Virus record (IMG/VR): IMGVR_UViG_2786546475_000032
Span: 39,048 to 103,047 of that record
Strand: one strand, 5' to 3'
Length of the DNA: 64,000 nt
Source: a virus
Lineage: Duplodnaviria > Caudoviricetes
In this document: positions 11,920-39,761 of the stretch, one piece after another
Numbering within the stretch: position 1 is the stretch's first letter
Layout of the letters: each line of letters begins with the position of its first letter
The notes under the pieces: generated by a model
The model's input: only the letters and a program-made list of their open reading frames with translations
What the model was told of the DNA's origin: nothing
The model's database searches: none
Position numbers and translations under genes: made by a program

Positions 11920-12040
11920 TGAACACTACTAAATGTAGGCTCGAAAAGTATGAAACAAGTCGAAAAATCAACTTGCTCGATTTTACTCACTCGCCTATCC
12001 CGCACCATAAACTTAAGCTCCAAAAGTATGAAACAAGTTT
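11920..12040 (-). promoter_or_regulatory. two tandem early promoter units
   Basis: AAAGTATGAAACAAG cores at 11945 and 12023 (78-bp spacing). Confidence 0.7.
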
Positions 12041-12070
12041 ATTTTCCGATTCATGAATTGAATCAGATAT

Positions 12071-12121
12071 AGAACAGTAGGGAATCGAACCCTATAGAAC
12101 CTGAAACCTTCAGGCTGTTCT
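12071..12121 (-). ncRNA. tRNA-like element H
   Basis: Same architecture as F and G. Confidence 0.75.
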
Positions 12122-12132
12122 AGTTTTCAGTA

Positions 12133-12534
12133 TCAGTAATAGTAACCAGCCTGACGAGCAAGCTGACGTTGACGATGATAATAGGCGTTCTCTCTTTCTT
12201 GGCGAGGAAGGTTTGAAGCAACCTCGAAACTAGGAGAACACCTAAAAGTATGCTTATCATTCTTCAACACTGTCAGTTGCGAAAGCGTTACATCGACCTT
12301 GACAAGCATCATCCCTCGATAATCCATCAGGACACCTTGTAATGAAGCAAGGTGAGGATCAGTCGTCCACACATATCTTGTCAACTTTACAGTATCCTCC
12401 AGAGAGTCACATGTGACATCGAACCCATGCCGATGTCGCAACTTTCTAAGGCATGTGCGAGCCTTTTGTGCATTCCCATTTTCCATATGGTCAACAAAGG
12501 ATTGCAACAGAACTTTGGCAGATGAAGTAGTCAT
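12133..12534 (-). CDS. hypothetical protein
   Basis: Start MTTSS at 12534 after AAGGAG SD. Confidence 0.7.
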   Translation of the reverse strand: MTTSSAKVLLQSFVDHMENGNAQKARTCLRKLRHRHGFDVTCDSLEDTVKLTRYVWTTDPHLASLQGVLMDYRGMMLVKVDVTLSQLTVLKNDKHTFRCSPSFEVASNLPRQERENAYYHRQRQLARQAGYYY

Positions 12535-12584
12535 TTTAGACTCCTTATTTTTAGTGCGTTCGACACCCACTGTATCGAACATTG

Positions 12585-13040
12585 TTTAATTTAAACGCCG
12601 AAAGTATGAAACAAGGCGTTTTTTCTAGAGTTAGCGTCAACCCGGTTTCCCGAGCCGACACTATAAAGTTAAGCGCCAAAAGTATGAAACAAGGCGATTT
12701 TTCAACCGCTCAATCTCACCCGCTCGCCTATCCCGCACCATAAACTTAAGCTCCAAAAGTATGAAACAAGCGCTAAATCAATTTCTCAATTTTTACGCCG
12801 TTTCCTTACCCCGTACCTTAAATGTAGGGGCGGAAAGTATGAAACAAGGATTTTTTCTCAATCCCTGTAACCACCCGATCCCCTTTCCCGTACTCTAAAG
12901 TTAACCGCGAAAAGTATGAAACAAGGCCGATTTTCAACCGCCCTTTTCCGTCCCTTCCCTTTTCCCGTACTCTAAATGTAGGCTCCAAAAGTATGAAACA
13001 AGTTTTTCCTCCTAAGCACAAAAAGTATGAAACAAGTTTT
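12585..13040 (-). repeat. tandem array of 77-78-bp promoter-like units
   Basis: AAAGTATGAAACAAG at 12601, 12679, 12756, 12834, 12911, 12988 (plus 13022); the first six have TAnnnT at fixed distance on the minus strand. Confidence 0.85.
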
Positions 13041-13677
13041 TTCTTCATCTTTTTAAAATAATTATATTCCTTTTAGAAATAAATTCATGATATATATTTA
13101 TATATATCACTCAAAAAACCCCACCCAAAAAGAAAAACAAAAAGAAACCCTACTCAGATAGATAAAGAGAATCCAGATATAGAGAAGGAAGATATAGTAT
13201 TAATAGATATGTCTAAAACAAATACACACTAAGACAATACCTAAATAAAGGATACCGACACACATATAACACACAAACCTAGCTCATATTGATACACCTT
13301 TGAAAACCTCTATGTTTTAGATTGTTGTAAATCACCCATATTCAGAAGATTGTTGTAAATTTTGGCTACCGAAAAACGATATCTCAAACTTATACATAGC
13401 TTATAAAGGGGTTTTACACTAATAGGGGTCATATTGATACCCTTAGTTAGATATAGGGGCCATATCGTGTTAATATGGGTTAAAAAGAGGTGTTTAAGGT
13501 TGACTTAGGTCTAAAAGAGGCATGTTTAAGGGGTAGGTCAGAATGATATGGGTTTGTTAGACATATGATAAATGAAGTTTACATAATGCCATCCCCGCAT
13601 ATCATCTGGCGACAGGTTTAAAAGATATGGGTCAGGGTTGGTTGTATTTAAAAGATCTGATATAGATTTGATATATC

Positions 13678-14017
13678 TTACAGCAGGTTCTCAAGCGGCT
13701 TTAGCCGCGTTTTGACCCCTATTTAAAAGATATATGTAGAACGATGATAAAGGCAGTTTACATAATGCCTTCTGAACTTATTCTATATCTCTTAGACATA
13801 TATCTTTTAAATAGGGGTCAAAAAGCTGTCTTACCCTAGGGCCAAAAAAAACGAACAACTATATCTCACCCGCATATATAGCTATCTTTAGGCAATCGTC
13901 TAAATGTACCATTTTTTGATATAGGTCTAAAAAAGTGTAACAAGTTTGGAGTTTTTCCTAGATGCGGATCATAAAATGGCAATTTTTACAGCAGGTTCAC
14001 AAGCGGCTTTAGCCGCG
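13678..14017. repeat. 32-bp direct repeat (13678-13709, 13986-14017) and 28-bp perfect inverted repeat (13710-13737 / 13796-13823)
   Basis: TTACAGCAGGTTCWCAAGCGGCTTTAGCCGCG twice; TTTTGACCCCTATTTAAAAGATATATGT and its reverse complement. Confidence 0.85.
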
Positions 14018-14162
14018 ATATGTAGGAAATAGATATAGGCTATATCAAAAAGATAATGGTCGAGTCCGATAAGTGATATTATGTAAACCAGGCCCCCAGG
14101 GGGTAGAAGGTCCGATAAGTGATATTATGTAAACTCGTTTCACAAGGGGGTCGCAAGCGATT

Positions 14163-14279
14163 TTTTAGATAGGGGTAAAAATGATATACTTCCTTCTCTA
14201 TATCTGTATTCTATATCTTCCTTCTCTATATCTGTATTCTATATCTTCCTTCTCTATATCTTTTTACCCCTATCTAAAA
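14163..14279. repeat. 19-bp inverted repeat enclosing a 29-bp tandem repeat
   Basis: TTTTAGATAGGGGTAAAAA / TTTTTACCCCTATCTAAAA around (CTTCCTTCTCTATATCTGTATTCTATAT)n; inverted copy of part of the unit at 13175-13197. Confidence 0.85.
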
Positions 14280-14319
14280 CAAGGTCCGATAAGACCGCAT
14301 TATGTAAACTTGGTTTAGA

Positions 14320-14600
14320 TGCAAAATATGTGCCAAAAAATTAGGCATGACTTTTGCATATGGAAAAGCTGATAAACCAAGTTTACATAATGCGCGGCTT
14401 GCAACCCCCGTGCCAACTATTCAAAAAATGGTAAAATAATTCAAGGTCCGATAAGTCGTGTTATGTAAACTAGCTGAGTTTACATAATACCCGCAAGCCG
14501 ATCCACAAGCTGGCGGAAATGTCAAGAGAAATTTGTAATTATTTTTATGCAGGAGCCTTTCAAAATCCGTGCCAACTTTCGGTATGCAATCCCTATGCCA
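14320..14600. promoter_or_regulatory. cluster of five sigma54 (RpoN) -24/-12 boxes
   Basis: TGGCACATATTTTGCA (14320,-), AGGCATGACTTTTGCA (14343,+), TGGCACGGGGGTTGCA (14400,-), TGGCACGGATTTTGAA (14559,-), TGGCATAGGGATTGCA (14585,-). Confidence 0.75.
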
Positions 14601-14630
14601 ACTTTTTACACAAATTTCGACTTGCACCTA

Positions 14631-14770
14631 ATTATACCATACTCCGAATATGAATTACAAGATCTTTTTTCAACTTTTTTCAGCGTCCGATAAGTTGTGT
14701 TATGTAAACTTCGGGTTCACAGAATTCGAGCAAGCGATTTTACCATATTGATTTATGGTTTGTCAAAGGG
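14631..14770 (-). promoter_or_regulatory. two sigma70-type promoters with extended -10
   Basis: TTGTAA-N18-TATAAT and TTGACA-N18-TAAAAT, both with TGn before -10 and upstream A-tracts. Confidence 0.7.
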
Positions 14771-14835
14771 TTTTTTCAACTTTTTTAGCGTCCGGTAAGA
14801 GGCATTATGTCAACTTGTCGGGTAGGTCAAAAAGA

Positions 14836-14857
14836 AAGCCCTCAAAAAGAGGGCTTA
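14836..14857. terminator. intrinsic terminator
   Basis: AAGCCCTC-AAAAA-GAGGGCTT hairpin, T-tract on the minus strand after ORF 14887. Confidence 0.6.
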
Positions 14858-14886
14858 TTTAAGATGGGTTGATTTGATATAGATTT

Positions 14887-15222
14887 TTAGATGAGTGCGC
14901 ACTTGATGCGCTCTGGGCGAACCCTCTCTCTTATATCATTGTAAACCATATACATCTCAAAAATGGTCTCTGGAGGGTTAGGGGGATTATTATTACTCTC
15001 ATATTGATACAGGTCGAAACGATACCTATTTCCATTGTTGATCACAGTGATAGTATCACCAGTAATATAAACTTTATTATCCCCCTTGACATAATCATAG
15101 TTCAAGGTGAGCACCTTTCTACCATGCGTAGTTTTGTGACGCTTGCTAAGGGTGTAACCTTCAGCTTTGATCCAATTGTGAATGTCGTAGAGAGCGCTAG
15201 CGATAAGATTAGCCATTTTCAA
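14887..15222 (-). CDS. hypothetical protein
   Basis: 111 aa, between the two dif clusters. Confidence 0.7.
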   Translation of the reverse strand: MKMANLIASALYDIHNWIKAEGYTLSKRHKTTHGRKVLTLNYDYVKGDNKVYITGDTITVINNGNRYRFDLYQYESNNNPPNPPETIFEMYMVYNDIRERVRPERIKCALI

Positions 15223-15283
15223 AATCCTTTTTTGGATTAGGGTTAAAACAAGATAGGTCGGAATGACCTATCTCTATGTGCAA

Positions 15284-15322
15284 TACCCCTTGAGGAATCG
15301 AACCTCGTAACCGGTAGGGGTA
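15284..15322 (-). ncRNA. tRNA-like element I
   Basis: TACCCCT/AGGGGTA acceptor, GAGG-TTCGATT-CCTC T-arm. Confidence 0.65.
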
Positions 15323-15338
15323 AAAGATATATCTCTAT

Positions 15339-15725
15339 TCAGTAGGGTTTGGGATAGTGGTGCTTATTGGTGCCAGTCAGATAGTGTTTAATCTGGCCTT
15401 CCTCATCTACCATCCAATTCCAGGGATGGAAAAACTCGCTACCTGGCTTGTCGCACTGGTAGACCATCATGAGGAATGATTTACTCTGTTTCTTCTCGCC
15501 ATCAAACTTCCACGCGAGGGTATCAGCGTAAGTAACGTAGGCGCTAGGATTGGAGCAGTATTCCTCACGGTTAGCAGCGCTAGGACTACTAACCATCGCG
15601 GTGTACCGCGCGAATGCTTTCTGAGTGTCACTGACCCCTAAGTCAGCGATAGCTTGGGTGGCATACCAGAAGGTGGCGCACGCGAGAAGAATTCCAGCCA
15701 CGATCGTCAAGTCAGCTTTCGTCAT
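15339..15725 (-). CDS. exported or membrane-anchored hypothetical protein
   Basis: Start MTKADLTIVAGILLACATFWYA at 15725 after GAGG SD. Confidence 0.7.
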   Translation of the reverse strand: MTKADLTIVAGILLACATFWYATQAIADLGVSDTQKAFARYTAMVSSPSAANREEYCSNPSAYVTYADTLAWKFDGEKKQSKSFLMMVYQCDKPGSEFFHPWNWMVDEEGQIKHYLTGTNKHHYPKPY

Positions 15726-15974
15726 GTTCGTAACCTCATGTTCATGTTTCAGTGTGTCGCTCTCGTTCAGTACACCCTGAGTGTACATGACGATTGATGA
15801 AAAAACAATACCCCAAAGTAAGAAACAAGGACTTTTTTGCATAGAAAATCCCGAACACCAGCTATGCATCATTCGCATATTTCAAAGGTTGGAGAATGGT
15901 CGTTCGCCAGGGGCATAGGTCAATTTGAGGTATATCTTTTTGAAGGGGGTCGATTACACGGGGGTGCCAAGCCG

Positions 15975-16006
15975 ATTATACCATACCTCAAATATGGTTG
16001 TAAAGC
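15975..16006 (-). promoter_or_regulatory. sigma70-type promoter
   Basis: TTTACA-N18-TATAAT with TGn extension. Confidence 0.6.
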
Positions 16007-16056
16007 ATTATTTCAAACTATTTTCGCACCGATTATGTCAACCCGCGTTATCACTC

Positions 16057-16084
16057 AGTTGACATAATACCGCTTATCAGACTT
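16057..16084 (-). other. dif-like Xer site
   Basis: AAGTCTGATAA-GCGGTA-TTATGTCAACT. Confidence 0.75.
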
Positions 16085-16695
16085 TCTAAAAGATAGGGTA
16101 AGGGTGATATAGCTCTTAAAGAGGTAGGTCGATTCAGCTATATCATTTAGGGGTAGGTCAGAATAGTAGGTGGGAGATTGCTGTATCTCTTTAATAGGGT
16201 TAACGAGAGTGTTCTTACAAGAGGTAGTGTAGAATGATGTGGGTTTAAAAGAGGTATGCTGAAAAGGTGGGTCAAACAAACCCACCTCATCTGATACCCT
16301 CTTTTGGATATGTTGAATCATCTTGTTCAATCCAAGTGTTCAAAACGCTTTTGTATATAAGCTTTCAACACTTCATTTCAACATAAGCTAAAATCCTTAT
16401 ATGCAATTCAAGTGTTGAAAGGCTTATGTTTAGTTGTAAAAATAACCGTAAAAATAATTCTGTTAGTATTAAGTGCAAAACTTGCGAGAAGGGCTCTAGA
16501 AGGCTCGTGAGAGGACGCTATTTCGCTACCCTTGTCAGTGTATTGACCTATCCTTTCAAATGGATTCTGAGCCAATCTGTGGACCCCGTTTCACCCGCAT
16601 AGAATGCGGACTTCCGGCATTATCTAATAGATTTCATGCCTGGATCACAGTTTCAAGAGTTTGTCAAGCGATCGGCCAAAATAGCTTAATTTTCC

Positions 16696-16864
16696 TGGCA
16701 CACACCTTGCATACACTACCTCATCATTACCTATATCTATTTAACCTATCCCTTTTTACACCCATAGCGACTTGGATGCAAAACCTGTGCCAAGCCTGTT
16801 TGTCAACAAAAATCCTGAAGTTGACATAACGCACCTTATCGGACCTTTTGCAAGATCAGTGCCA
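16696..16864. promoter_or_regulatory. cluster of three sigma54 boxes
   Basis: TGGCACACACCTTGCA (16696,+), TGGCACAGGTTTTGCA (16777,-), TGGCACTGATCTTGCA (16849,-). Confidence 0.75.
16819..16846 (-). other. dif-like Xer site
   Basis: AGGTCCGATAA-GGTGCG-TTATGTCAACT. Confidence 0.8.
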
Positions 16865-16986
16865 AGCCTGTTTTGCAAGCTGTTTTTGAAATAAGTTGAG
16901 TTGACATAATCCACGCATACCGCGTCCCTCGTTTCTGATCTACATGCTCGAGTTTTTGTCAAGGGAAAAGAAAGTTTAAAAAAATG

Positions 16987-37516: not shown

Positions 37517-37880
37517 AGGTAAAAAAGATTCAAAAATGCTTATGTTATCAGCTTCAGAAAAAGCTAAGGCCCCAAAAGGCGTCAAAACTCTTTCTGTAGA
37601 TCCTACTACTAAAGAAGTTGAAGAGCTTAAAGAAGAAGAGGATAAAGAGGAGGAGGCTTCGAAAGCTAAACCTAAAAAGAAGTCTTCGAAGAAGCAGAAA
37701 CGTAGTGAGGTTAAAAAAGCTGAACGCGCTGCAAAAGAGGATAAAGAAGAAGTTGTTGAAGAGGAGGTCGAGGTTAAAGAGTATAACCAACCTTCTCAAA
37801 CAGCGGCTAAACTTTCTTCAATCCGTAGAGAGACCCCAGACAAAGCTCGAAAGTACATTGGTACACGAACGAGGTGGTAA
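37509..37880 (+). CDS. K/E-rich hypothetical protein
   Basis: 123 aa, low complexity, coupled. Confidence 0.7.
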   Translation: MSEGKKDSKMLMLSASEKAKAPKGVKTLSVDPTTKEVEELKEEEDKEEEASKAKPKKKSSKKQKRSEVKKAERAAKEDKEEVVEEEVEVKEYNQPSQTAAKLSSIRRETPDKARKYIGTRTRW

Positions 37881-39761
37881 ATGGAGATTAAGGATCTTGA
37901 CGCACCTGATAGGGCTCCTGCTGGTTGGGTGAAGAGAGATCCTGAACCAGAAGAGCTAGAAGGGTTATTTGATTTTATAGCTACAGAACTAGGTTTTTTG
38001 GAGAATGTTTTAGATCCAGATAAAATGGATCAGCTATCCCCAACTGGAACATGGGAGTGGGATAAGTATCAGGAAGATTACTTTATGTGCGACACCTCTT
38101 TCATCTGTAACAAATGCAGACAAAGTGGTGGTTCAGCTATGCTAGCTGCGAAAGCTTTTGCTAGAGGGATGTTGGCGCAAGGTAACTTCTCTTCAGTCAT
38201 GACTTCATATAAGAAGGAAGAGGCTGTTAACAAGATTCACTATGTTAAACAGTATTTGGATGCGCTACCTCCCAAGTTTAGGAAGAAGATTATTAGAGAT
38301 CCTCTTCAGTTAATCGAGTTTGAAAACTACAACGGGACACGCGCTAAAATATTTTCTCACGCTCAGAAACCTATTCGTGGGGTTCCTGCGGATCAGGTTG
38401 GGTTGGATGAGTTAGCCTTCTATCAGTGGGCTGAAGAGGTTTACGCATCGGCGCTACCAGCTATCGCGATGGTTAGAGGAACGATTGATATTATTTCTAC
38501 TCCATTCGGTATGTCAGGTAAATTCTTCGAGATTTTTGATGATGAGAGAAGATATCCTTTCTACGCACGCCTACCTATTTTCTGGTGGATGTGTAAGAGA
38601 TACTTGAAAGAAGAGAATTATGAATTCATGGCTAAGGCTGTGAGACACGCTCCTTTCATGTCTACAGAAGAGAGAGTCCACTTATTTGGTGGAGCTTCTA
38701 TCGTTCAACAGTTTCAGAACGCTTCTGACCTAGAAACATTTCAACAGGAATTCGAAGGGTACTTCGTTGATGAGCAGTCAGCCTTCTTTCACAAAAAGCT
38801 GATTCTTAGCTGTATGTATAATAAGGTTTCTAAAATTGATGATTTCGATCCCAAAGAGGACGAGTTCTACGAATTGGTTGATGGTGTCAAAGTTCAGGTT
38901 TCTCCAGAAGACGCCCTAAGTTCTGAGAGTTATCCTATCCTTGAGAAGTATAGGGGTAAAAAGGATATTCATGGAAAACCAGTTAGATTTAAAAAGTACG
39001 ATACGCTTCAAGAGCTTTACAGTGCATTCCGAACTGGCGAAATTGGTCGCAATATTATTGCTGGAGTCGATTTGGGCACAACAAGACACTCAACAGACAT
39101 CCGAATCTTAGAGGAGATTGTTTTCGAAGATGGCTCTACATTACAGGTAGAAAGGTTTAGTAAGAATGTTCAAAGATGGGATTTACCCAGTCAACAGAAT
39201 TACTTCGAAGCCTTATTACGATCTGGAATCATTAGAAAGATGTTGATGGATTGTACTGGACCTGGAACACAGATGGGGCAGTATTTAGCTAGAAGGTTCC
39301 CTTCAACATTTGTTGATGTTCAGATGGGTGGTAACAACGGTAAACAAGAGCAATTTATGGTCAACCTGAAGAACAGGCTTGAGAATGGTGAATTAGCTTT
39401 GGAGTTCGATAGACAACTTCTGGAGGAATTATATTCCATCGAGCGAGTTGTTGGTGACAACCGTTCTATCCGTTTTAAAGCTGAGGAAAAGAAGAGACAC
39501 CACGCTGATGGCGCGTGGGCTTTAGCTTTTGCTTGTTTCGCTGGTACACCTGCTGGAAAAGCTACTGACAAATTTGTTAACAACTTTTCAGTCGGGAGCA
39601 TCAAATCCTTTTCTGTAGAAGCTCATAAAGAAAGAGCTTTGAACAGGAAGAATTTAGATCGCTCATTCGAGTCATCGAGTTTCGCTGTTTCTTTAGAAGA
39701 GAAAATGGCGTTACTCGATTTGCACGGTATAGATAATTTTATTGGAGGTTTTGAGGAGTAA
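37881..39761 (+). CDS. terL: terminase large subunit
   Basis: NKCRQSGGS, LDELAF (Walker B), ISTPFG, FQQEFEG, GVDLG and HHADGAWALA nuclease motifs. Confidence 0.92.
   Translation: MEIKDLDAPDRAPAGWVKRDPEPEELEGLFDFIATELGFLENVLDPDKMDQLSPTGTWEWDKYQEDYFMCDTSFICNKCRQSGGSAMLAAKAFARGMLAQGNFSSVMTSYKKEEAVNKIHYVKQYLDALPPKFRKKIIRDPLQLIEFENYNGTRAKIFSHAQKPIRGVPADQVGLDELAFYQWAEEVYASALPAIAMVRGTIDIISTPFGMSGKFFEIFDDERRYPFYARLPIFWWMCKRYLKEENYEFMAKAVRHAPFMSTEERVHLFGGASIVQQFQNASDLETFQQEFEGYFVDEQSAFFHKKLILSCMYNKVSKIDDFDPKEDEFYELVDGVKVQVSPEDALSSESYPILEKYRGKKDIHGKPVRFKKYDTLQELYSAFRTGEIGRNIIAGVDLGTTRHSTDIRILEEIVFEDGSTLQVERFSKNVQRWDLPSQQNYFEALLRSGIIRKMLMDCTGPGTQMGQYLARRFPSTFVDVQMGGNNGKQEQFMVNLKNRLENGELALEFDRQLLEELYSIERVVGDNRSIRFKAEEKKRHHADGAWALAFACFAGTPAGKATDKFVNNFSVGSIKSFSVEAHKERALNRKNLDRSFESSSFAVSLEEKMALLDLHGIDNFIGGFEE

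Follow-up and report, generated by a model that had tools for sequence, protein, structure and literature searches.

Sigma-54-type promoter boxes interleaved with Xer/dif sites in the control hub of an uncultured marine tailed phage

Why does a tailed phage concentrate eight boxes of the bacterial sigma-54 (RpoN) promoter type within 2.5 kb of its DNA and place no gene directly beside any of them? The question is raised by the IMG/VR virus record IMGVR_UViG_2786546475_000032 (Duplodnaviria; Caudoviricetes), which is linear, 103,047 bp long and rated 73% complete. Bases 39048-103047 of this record, 64,000 nucleotides, are the window analysed here, and positions are given in window coordinates. 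Positions 12600-17080 (~4.5 kb) of the window form a divergent control hub, with genes running leftward from 12582 and rightward from 17080, and the boxes lie in it between 14320 and 16864. The sigma-54 holoenzyme forms stable closed complexes and fires only upon the action of an enhancer-binding ATPase, and a first-pass annotation of this DNA had read the boxes as a docking or decoy platform for tightly binding host proteins, with which the phage might titrate RpoN polymerase, coat the DNA that enters first or anchor ejection. Our analysis identifies a close coupling of the boxes to sites of the Xer recombination system and leads us to a different, tentative preference, namely that they may be promoters held in a poised state.

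All eight boxes occur where the first-pass annotation placed them, on the strands given and in both orientations (Table 1). GG-N10-GC is kept in seven, the exception being the box at 14559 with GA, as had also been described. Compilations of bacterial promoters give the extended sigma-54 consensus mrNrYTGGCACGrNNNTTGCW, and the pattern TGGCAY-N5-TTGCW is matched exactly by six of the eight boxes (five TGGCAC-N5-TTGCA and one TGGCAT). Enrichment in this region only, which a scan of the whole genome had been proposed to reveal, was indeed found, and the density of boxes elsewhere is not similar. The six exact matches are the only ones in the 103,047-bp record and all lie within 2.5 kb, against a mean of 0.15 expected (maximum 2) in 300 first-order Markov simulations. 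The strict form TGGCAC-N5-TTGCW has five matches in the whole record, all in the box region, with none for the reversed control, and the seven highest scores of a weighted consensus scan of the record belong to seven of these boxes, all in 14320-16864. Among the copies the -24 and -12 elements are kept while the spacers are wholly different, which indicates that each box is maintained in its own right and that they did not arise by copying of a single repeat. They fall into two sub-clusters 2.1 kb apart (14320-14600 and 16696-16864), with one 26-bp tandem and one 23-bp divergent (back-to-back) pair, the remaining four boxes being isolated. A weak ninth box that had been proposed at 15954-15969 on the minus strand (TGGCACCCCCGTGTAA) was rejected, as it has no -12 element and sits immediately behind the -10 hexamer of a sigma-70 promoter. 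Judged by their sequence, the eight boxes are predicted with high confidence to be genuine sigma-54 holoenzyme sites.

Boxes of this kind recur in other phages. A scan of IMG/VR for two boxes 5-35 bp apart matched at least 120 contigs (42 contigs with a reversed control pattern), from which 80 viral loci were fetched. Three or more boxes, up to 16, are present in 53 of the 80 loci against 8 of 42 control loci, and the viral set is dominated by arrays of at least three boxes; a tandem pair also occurs in 5 of 301 Desulfobacterota genomes, and no density ratio between viruses and bacteria is claimed. At positions left free by the search, the 314 distinct boxes of the 80 loci have T before TGGCA in 62%, G after TGGCAY in 73%, then R in 76%, and W after TTGC in 89%, and this extended consensus is reproduced in 27 loci having no protein in common with any other locus. 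Five complete phages each have all their boxes in a single region (zero for the reversed control), and the window belongs to the same class, its non-coding control region containing at least three consensus boxes and the rest of the record none. Spacings in the 80 loci peak at 26-29 bp for same-strand, 18-22 bp for convergent and ~25 bp for divergent pairs, and the 26-bp and 23-bp pairs of the window fall within this distribution. Just 8 of 325 boxes lie inside open reading frames (ORFs), and for 184 of 271 the next gene of at least 90 aa runs in the same direction as the box, the other 87 facing gene ends. A box in locus L053 sits ~55 nt upstream of a gene carrying a ribosome-binding site, and in L266 13 of the 16 boxes are on the same strand as the small genes they precede.

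No protein family common to all array loci was found, and a k-mer search near the arrays for a shared activator-site motif returned only A/T runs and TTGACA. This sigma-70 -35 hexamer is over-represented within 250 bp of the arrays, as expected of early control regions. A search of this record and of 21 other phage records with arrays did not find the sigma-54 DNA-binding domain. The extended consensus, its presence across loci with unrelated proteins, and the lack of a phage activator (see below) or sigma-54 domain make a conserved host factor the simplest reader of the boxes. An RpoN-containing host is a reasonable implication of the sequence, and RpoN is present in phyla whose chromosomes carry the exact dif pattern described below. 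A TerL gene is common to at least 29 of the 80 array loci (L190, L192, L195, L198, L208, L211, L219, L222-L224 and others), and in L190, L195 and L224 the array lies in a divergent region just upstream of an operon of small ORFs, endolysin, TerL and portal genes. Several arrays are at contig ends, which may be true genome ends or assembly breaks. An Xer arm is absent from most of the other arrays. A full-text literature search gave no paper on clusters of sigma-54 sites in phages or on a link between XerD and sigma-54, one report mentioning only a weak sigma-54-like phage protein (PMC7693777).

The full dif-like sites among which the boxes of the window are threaded consist of an XerC arm, a centre of 6 bp (7 bp in one site) and an XerD arm, and both arms are identical to those of chromosomal dif. 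At least 120 bacterial assemblies, drawn from many phyla (Acidobacteriota, Desulfobacterota, Myxococcota, Ignavibacteria, Fibrobacter, Brevibacillus, Bacteroidota and others), contain the pattern GTCCGATAA-N6-TTATGTAAAC once per contig, and it is also present once each in 61 other viral contigs. This occurrence in bacteria marks it as a real chromosomal dif type, although it is spread over too many phyla to name the host of this phage. The hub holds 14 of the 16 XerD-arm decamers of the record. The short distance between boxes and Xer/dif arms that had been pointed out earlier was borne out by gaps of 10 bp (14309 to 14320), 9 bp (14390 to 14400) and 4 bp (16844 to 16849), and a same-strand XerD decamer lies 27-62 nt upstream of five of the eight boxes. 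Among the viral dif loci, the density of sigma-54-like boxes is 5.6 times higher up to 1 kb from dif than beyond (0.173 against 0.031 per kb; p = 2e-6; 11 of 61 loci), and the 11 loci concerned have no proteins in common. No such excess was found at chromosomal dif in 80 bacterial loci (0.013 against 0.014 per kb).

The association takes two recurrent forms, each of fixed geometry. In one, a full dif site is followed after 4-10 bp by an opposite-strand box whose -12 end is beside the XerD arm, so that the predicted start falls inside the arm; this arrangement is present in the window (14284/14320), in L053, L365 and L375 and in the L201 group, and the XerC-side ATAA is at the right distance in 11 of 30 pattern matches against 0.15 expected. 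In the other, a lone TTATGTAAAY decamer is located exactly 6 bp upstream of a co-directional box (28 of 41 matches, in at least five unrelated lineages). The coupling of Xer/dif to sigma-54 boxes is phage-specific and statistically strong, and is the new element of this analysis. In the L201 group and in a large family of array phages the element lies just upstream of the terminase-portal operon, and in this phage it is 21 kb from TerL.

Several further observations concern these composites. The unit TTATGTAAAY, 6 bp (A/T-rich) and TGGCAC-N5-TTGCA is often present in two to three copies ~85-90 bp apart, again in at least five unrelated phage lineages (L386, L388, L391, L392, L393, L396, L397, L403, L404, L406, L408 and L410-L413); some copies have an inverted TTACATAA 14 nt upstream, and in L408 three boxes face the 3' ends of genes. 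The viral dif loci L023, L029, L040 and L052, otherwise unrelated, share 42-59 nt at ~85% identity, and the dif sites of L023, L029 and L052 are all flanked by ATTACKAC on their XerC side, so that the dif-like element of phages may extend beyond the 28-bp core. In the window, the orientation of the dif sites mirrors the divergent gene layout, the six left-hand sites being on the plus strand and both right-hand sites on the minus strand. The centres of the first two sites are alike and otherwise all of the eight differ, one being 7 bp long. The single-stranded form of 14280-14400, which contains the palindromic module of Table 1, folds at -31.9 kcal/mol (z = -9.1).

As to the genes that the boxes might serve, the earlier statement that they mostly lack a downstream gene stands in so far as none lies within ~370 nt of any box, but does not hold for direction, seven of the eight being co-oriented with the next plausible gene at 0.37-2 kb. 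In the left cluster the four minus-strand boxes are directed at the leftward operon (12582, minus), 1.7-2 kb off, boxes 16777 and 16849 at the gene at 15725 (minus), ~1.1 kb off, and box 16696 at the rightward operon (17080, plus), 370 nt off. Only the plus-strand box at 14343 faces a gene end. The boxes are thus orphans as to adjacency, not as to direction.

Table 1. Sigma-54 boxes, Xer/dif sites and other elements of the control hub, in window coordinates; predicted start sites (+1) are counted from the GC of the -12 element
Feature	Sequence or form	Position	Strand	Remarks
Sigma-54 box	TGGCACATATTTTGCA	14320-14335	minus	Exact match; predicted +1 ~14309, the outermost base of the XerD arm of dif site 14284-14309
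Sigma-54 box	AGGCATGACTTTTGCA	14343-14358	plus	GG/GC kept, first T replaced by A; back-to-back with 14320 (minus), 7 bp between
Sigma-54 box	TGGCACGGGGGTTGCA	14400-14415	minus	Top score of the record; 9 bp from lone XerD arm 14381-14390
Sigma-54-like box	TGGCACGGATTTTGAA	14559-14574	minus	-12 GC replaced by GA; 26 bp downstream of box 14585
Sigma-54 box	TGGCATAGGGATTGCA	14585-14600	minus	~25-40 nt downstream of the start of sigma-70 promoter 14660->14631
Sigma-54 box	TGGCACACACCTTGCA	16696-16711	plus	Faces rightward operon (first gene 17080); convergent with 16777 (minus), 65 bp apart
Sigma-54 box	TGGCACAGGTTTTGCA	16777-16792	minus	Same-strand XerD arm 27 nt upstream
Sigma-54 box	TGGCACTGATCTTGCA	16849-16864	minus	4 bp from XerC side of dif 16820-16844; predicted +1 ~16838 in dif centre
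Six dif-like sites	GTCCGATAA-N6/7-TTATGTMAAC	14064-14814 (starts 14064, 14110, 14284, 14446, 14685, 14790)	all plus	Differing centres
Two dif-like sites		16058-16082 and 16820-16844	minus	
Six lone XerD-arm decamers		13577, 13756, 14381, 14478, 16033, 16900	minus, except 16033 (plus)	Together spanning 13577-16909
Palindromic module, ~100 nt	XerD arm, box (minus), box (plus), inverted XerD arm	14296-14394		Outer arms 22 nt, perfectly complementary
Two strong sigma-70 promoters	Extended -10	14660->14631 and 14766->14737	minus	Each 23-24 bp downstream of a dif site, firing leftward through sigma-54 boxes
Third copy of sigma-70 promoter unit		15975-16004	minus	Leads to gene 15725->15339
Iteron-like block	28-bp repeat x3 inside a perfect 19-bp inverted repeat	14163-14279		Downstream of four leftward boxes
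Seven tandem ~77-bp units	Each with CTTGTTTCATACTTT	12601-13036	minus	Directly upstream of the leftward operon starting at 12582

Taking these data together, we tentatively favour the reading that the boxes are poised, activator-gated promoters for the host sigma-54 polymerase, which would fire through the Xer sites toward the early operons. Host sigma-54 RNA polymerase holoenzyme would bind the eight boxes in the divergent early-control hub, and stable closed complexes would wait on them until an enhancer-binding ATPase becomes active, the latter being either host-encoded or located on the missing 27% of the phage genome. Upon firing, six boxes would drive polymerase leftward and two rightward, and on its way to the two early operons transcription would pass through the neighbouring Xer/dif sites, the iteron-like block and the sigma-70 promoter units. 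The products could be a leader or non-coding RNA, and Xer-bound sites could be cleared or remodelled, the boxes serving as promoters gated by the state of the host. An activator-gated promoter is at least as likely as a decoy because of the co-orientation seen in the window and in the other loci, and because L053 and L266 have their boxes at ordinary promoter distance. The rarity of boxes inside ORFs and the enrichment of TTGACA beside the arrays also speak for promoters. A number of points weigh against it. The co-oriented genes are far away, and the intervening DNA carries other promoters and many protein-binding sites; the 26-bp tandem, 23-bp back-to-back and 65-bp convergent pairs cannot all be productively occupied; predicted starts lie inside Xer sites (at 14309 in an arm and at 16838 in a dif centre); and boxes face gene ends in some phages (L408; 87 of 271 overall). 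An enhancer-binding ATPase (PF00158) was found neither in this record, 73% complete, nor in any of 21 further records with arrays, of which 12 are at least 90% complete, and no upstream activator site was recognised near the boxes of the window.

It is possible, if somewhat doubtful, that the boxes are instead what the first-pass annotation had taken them for, a non-productive docking platform on which XerC/XerD and sigma-54 holoenzyme (or free sigma-54) would sit next to each other in stable complexes that never fire. Such a platform could be a roadblock or insulator against DNA translocases, loop extruders and read-through transcription, or a sink for a small host sigma-54 pool. The parts of that proposal which hold are the sigma-54 type of the sites, their confinement and their non-random interleaving with Xer sites, and it agrees with the activator gene not having been found in this record or in the 12 near-complete array phages. 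The spacing peaks look like close packing, too tight for independent firing, and the unproductive geometries just listed, including the starts in Xer arms, fit stable closed-complex docking. The full dif site with an inward-facing box at 4-10 bp recurs in at least four unrelated lineages besides the window, and the boxes of L408, like a third of all boxes, are directed at gene ends. FtsK is strongly blocked, in an oriented manner, at the outer face of XerD bound to a half-site (PMC2800217), so that a combined Xer/sigma-54 barrier or gate is conceivable. However, the bias toward downstream genes (184 against 87; seven of eight in the window) would be unexpected for a pure decoy; the boxes of L053 and L266 occupy normal promoter positions; eight sites per genome are few unless copy number is high, and any benefit of removing sigma-54 would be hypothetical. 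A further and rather unlikely variant has sigma-54 holoenzyme and XerD or XerCD forming a nucleoprotein device on phage DNA without a classical enhancer-binding protein, either with the -12 side 4-10 bp from the outer face of an XerD arm or with an XerD-like decamer exactly 6 bp upstream; a host DNA motor halted by XerD, for example FtsK, or the Xer proteins might then gate or replace the activator, or the pair might block translocases and loop extruders.

Transcription is known to open or prime origins at lambda ori, T4 and ColE1, and the leftward boxes and two sigma-70 promoters could likewise fire into the iteron-like block and AT-rich stretch (13040-14280) and so open or prime a replication origin. 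Four of the five left-cluster boxes and both strong sigma-70 promoters do point at the 28-bp repeats with their 19-bp inverted repeat and at the AT-rich tract, but this role is unlikely: a replication initiator was not identified beside the region, a search for DnaA boxes gave none, GC skew has no origin signal there, and the right-hand cluster would be left unexplained. Slightly less probable still is that the boxes are operators of a phage-encoded DNA-binding protein and merely resemble sigma-54 promoters. TGGCA and TTGCA, 11 bp apart, do make a direct repeat that a tandem-binding protein could read, and the box arrays of many phages are palindromic and operator-like; the extended consensus with its sigma-54-typical flanks nevertheless recurs in phages without shared proteins, the array loci yielded no protein family common to all, and the sigma-54 DNA-binding domain was not found in the 22 records searched. 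Chance matches within a repeat-rich region are effectively refuted. Over the whole window, a relaxed pattern with one mismatch has 12 matches where shuffling predicts 6.1, only about double, but the clustered exact matches exceed their expectation by far more, six against 0.15, and their spacers are unrelated.

The hub holds only two genes, both small and on the minus strand (15725 to 15339 and 15222 to 14887), which end at a terminator (14856 to 14836). Its sigma-70 promoter unit, composed of a dif or XerD arm, 23-24 bp and a strong, near-consensus promoter with an extended -10, is present in three copies, all on the minus strand, two of which have no gene ahead of the next kilobase of binding sites. 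An inverted copy of the 28-bp repeat is found at 13168-13209, ~1 kb leftward of the iteron-like block, with an AT-rich tract beyond (13040-13110), a layout of repeats and AT-rich DNA that looks like an origin, although no initiator gene was identified. The 15-nt motif CTTGTTTCATACTTT has 12 copies in the 103-kb record, always near early gene starts; those outside the tandem block include 15815 (minus), 16988 (plus), 8869, 11948 and 12026, and short complementary GC arms flank some copies. A phage-specific operator or promoter is one possible role for it, a 5'-leader element another.

Minihelices resembling transfer RNA (tRNA), with a T-arm and an acceptor-like stem, directly follow genes at 18260-18305 (plus), 12071-12121 (minus) and 15288-15330 (minus). 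Two of the three weakly match the Rfam mascRNA type (E = 0.02 and 0.2), and such minihelices might serve as signals for RNase P/Z processing between early genes. An Rfam scan of 12000-18500 found no credible family, giving weak tRNA-like matches only, outside the boxes. A protein at G000 37716-38285 (L188:17716-18285, minus) has a Swiss Army Knife RNA repair HAD domain (Pfam PF18143, E = 2e-16), which fits a phage that invests in tRNA or RNA repair beside tRNA-like elements.

The genes of a tailed phage are located at 37.9-60.7 kb of the window and include TerL, portal, major head protein and a 2,892-aa tail protein. The phage also encodes PhoH, HNH nucleases and enzymes of nucleotide metabolism, and the majority of its proteins are without a family. 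A tyrosine recombinase was not found in the 73%-complete record, and the ORFs flanking the hub gave no Pfam or PHROG family. The hub DNA has zero matches among 50,697 cultured-phage records, TerL has at most 29% identity to any cultured-phage protein, and no close relative of TerL or of the hub-flanking proteins was found in IMG/VR. The source is marine metagenomes, the stretch being present in eleven DNA runs from three studies (2014-2020); no RNA run is listed as containing it. Contigs from four of the runs (two other studies) are identical to the window over all covered bases, and there is consequently zero variation from which to read selection.

Compared with the RpoN -24/-12 promoters of bacteria (YTGGCACGR-N3-TTGCW; for example glnAp2 and pspA), the boxes are alike in having GG and GC exactly 10 bp apart, in an extended consensus of textbook level, and in being intergenic and mostly co-oriented with genes. 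They differ in that the phage has eight in 2.5 kb, with no adjacent genes and no recognised activator site or activator gene, and in that its pairs are too close (23-26 bp) or convergent and its predicted starts lie inside recombinase sites. With the sigma-54 arrays of other uncultured phages they share the placement in one control region, mixed orientations, the 26-bp tandem and ~23-25-bp divergent spacings, nearby sigma-70 promoters and the lack of a phage activator; this cluster is looser, its sub-clusters being 2.1 kb apart, and is threaded through 14 Xer arms. Chromatin immunoprecipitation studies in enterobacteria have described sigma-54 holoenzyme sites that are intragenic or non-productive, and also repression through promoter occlusion. 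The predicted binding of holoenzyme in the phage, without obvious transcript and with possible interference with nearby sigma-70 promoters, resembles these, but the enterobacterial sites are scattered singly in chromosomes and those of the phage are clustered in a control hub. Sites for host proteins are also found on the DNA of virulent phages, as with the parS and Spo0A boxes of phi29-type phages and the tandem host-polymerase promoters at the leading end of T7. The likeness is in the location of sites for host DNA-binding proteins in an early region, whereas the factors here would be sigma-54 and Xer, and any role in entry or segregation would be hypothetical.

Sigma-54 transcription is usually viewed as a tightly gated bacterial system that needs an ATPase activator, and we know of no use of it by phages. 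This phage and at least 120 viral contigs concentrate textbook sigma-54 sites in control regions, with no activator found in the 22 records searched. Either such phages tie their early programme to host physiology through activators of the host, or the uniquely stable closed complex serves as a structural DNA-bound protein. As regards XerCD-dif, lone XerD sites and Xer-exploiting elements such as the CTX phage, both arms of the sites in the hub match the chromosomal dif of many phyla base for base, and the palindromic module could fold like a single-strand attachment site. The differences are the fourteen arms with different centres, their presence in a large tailed phage in which no recombinase gene was found, and the coupling of Xer arms to sigma-54 boxes, which to our knowledge has no parallel in any Xer system and which ties together two host machineries without a known connection.

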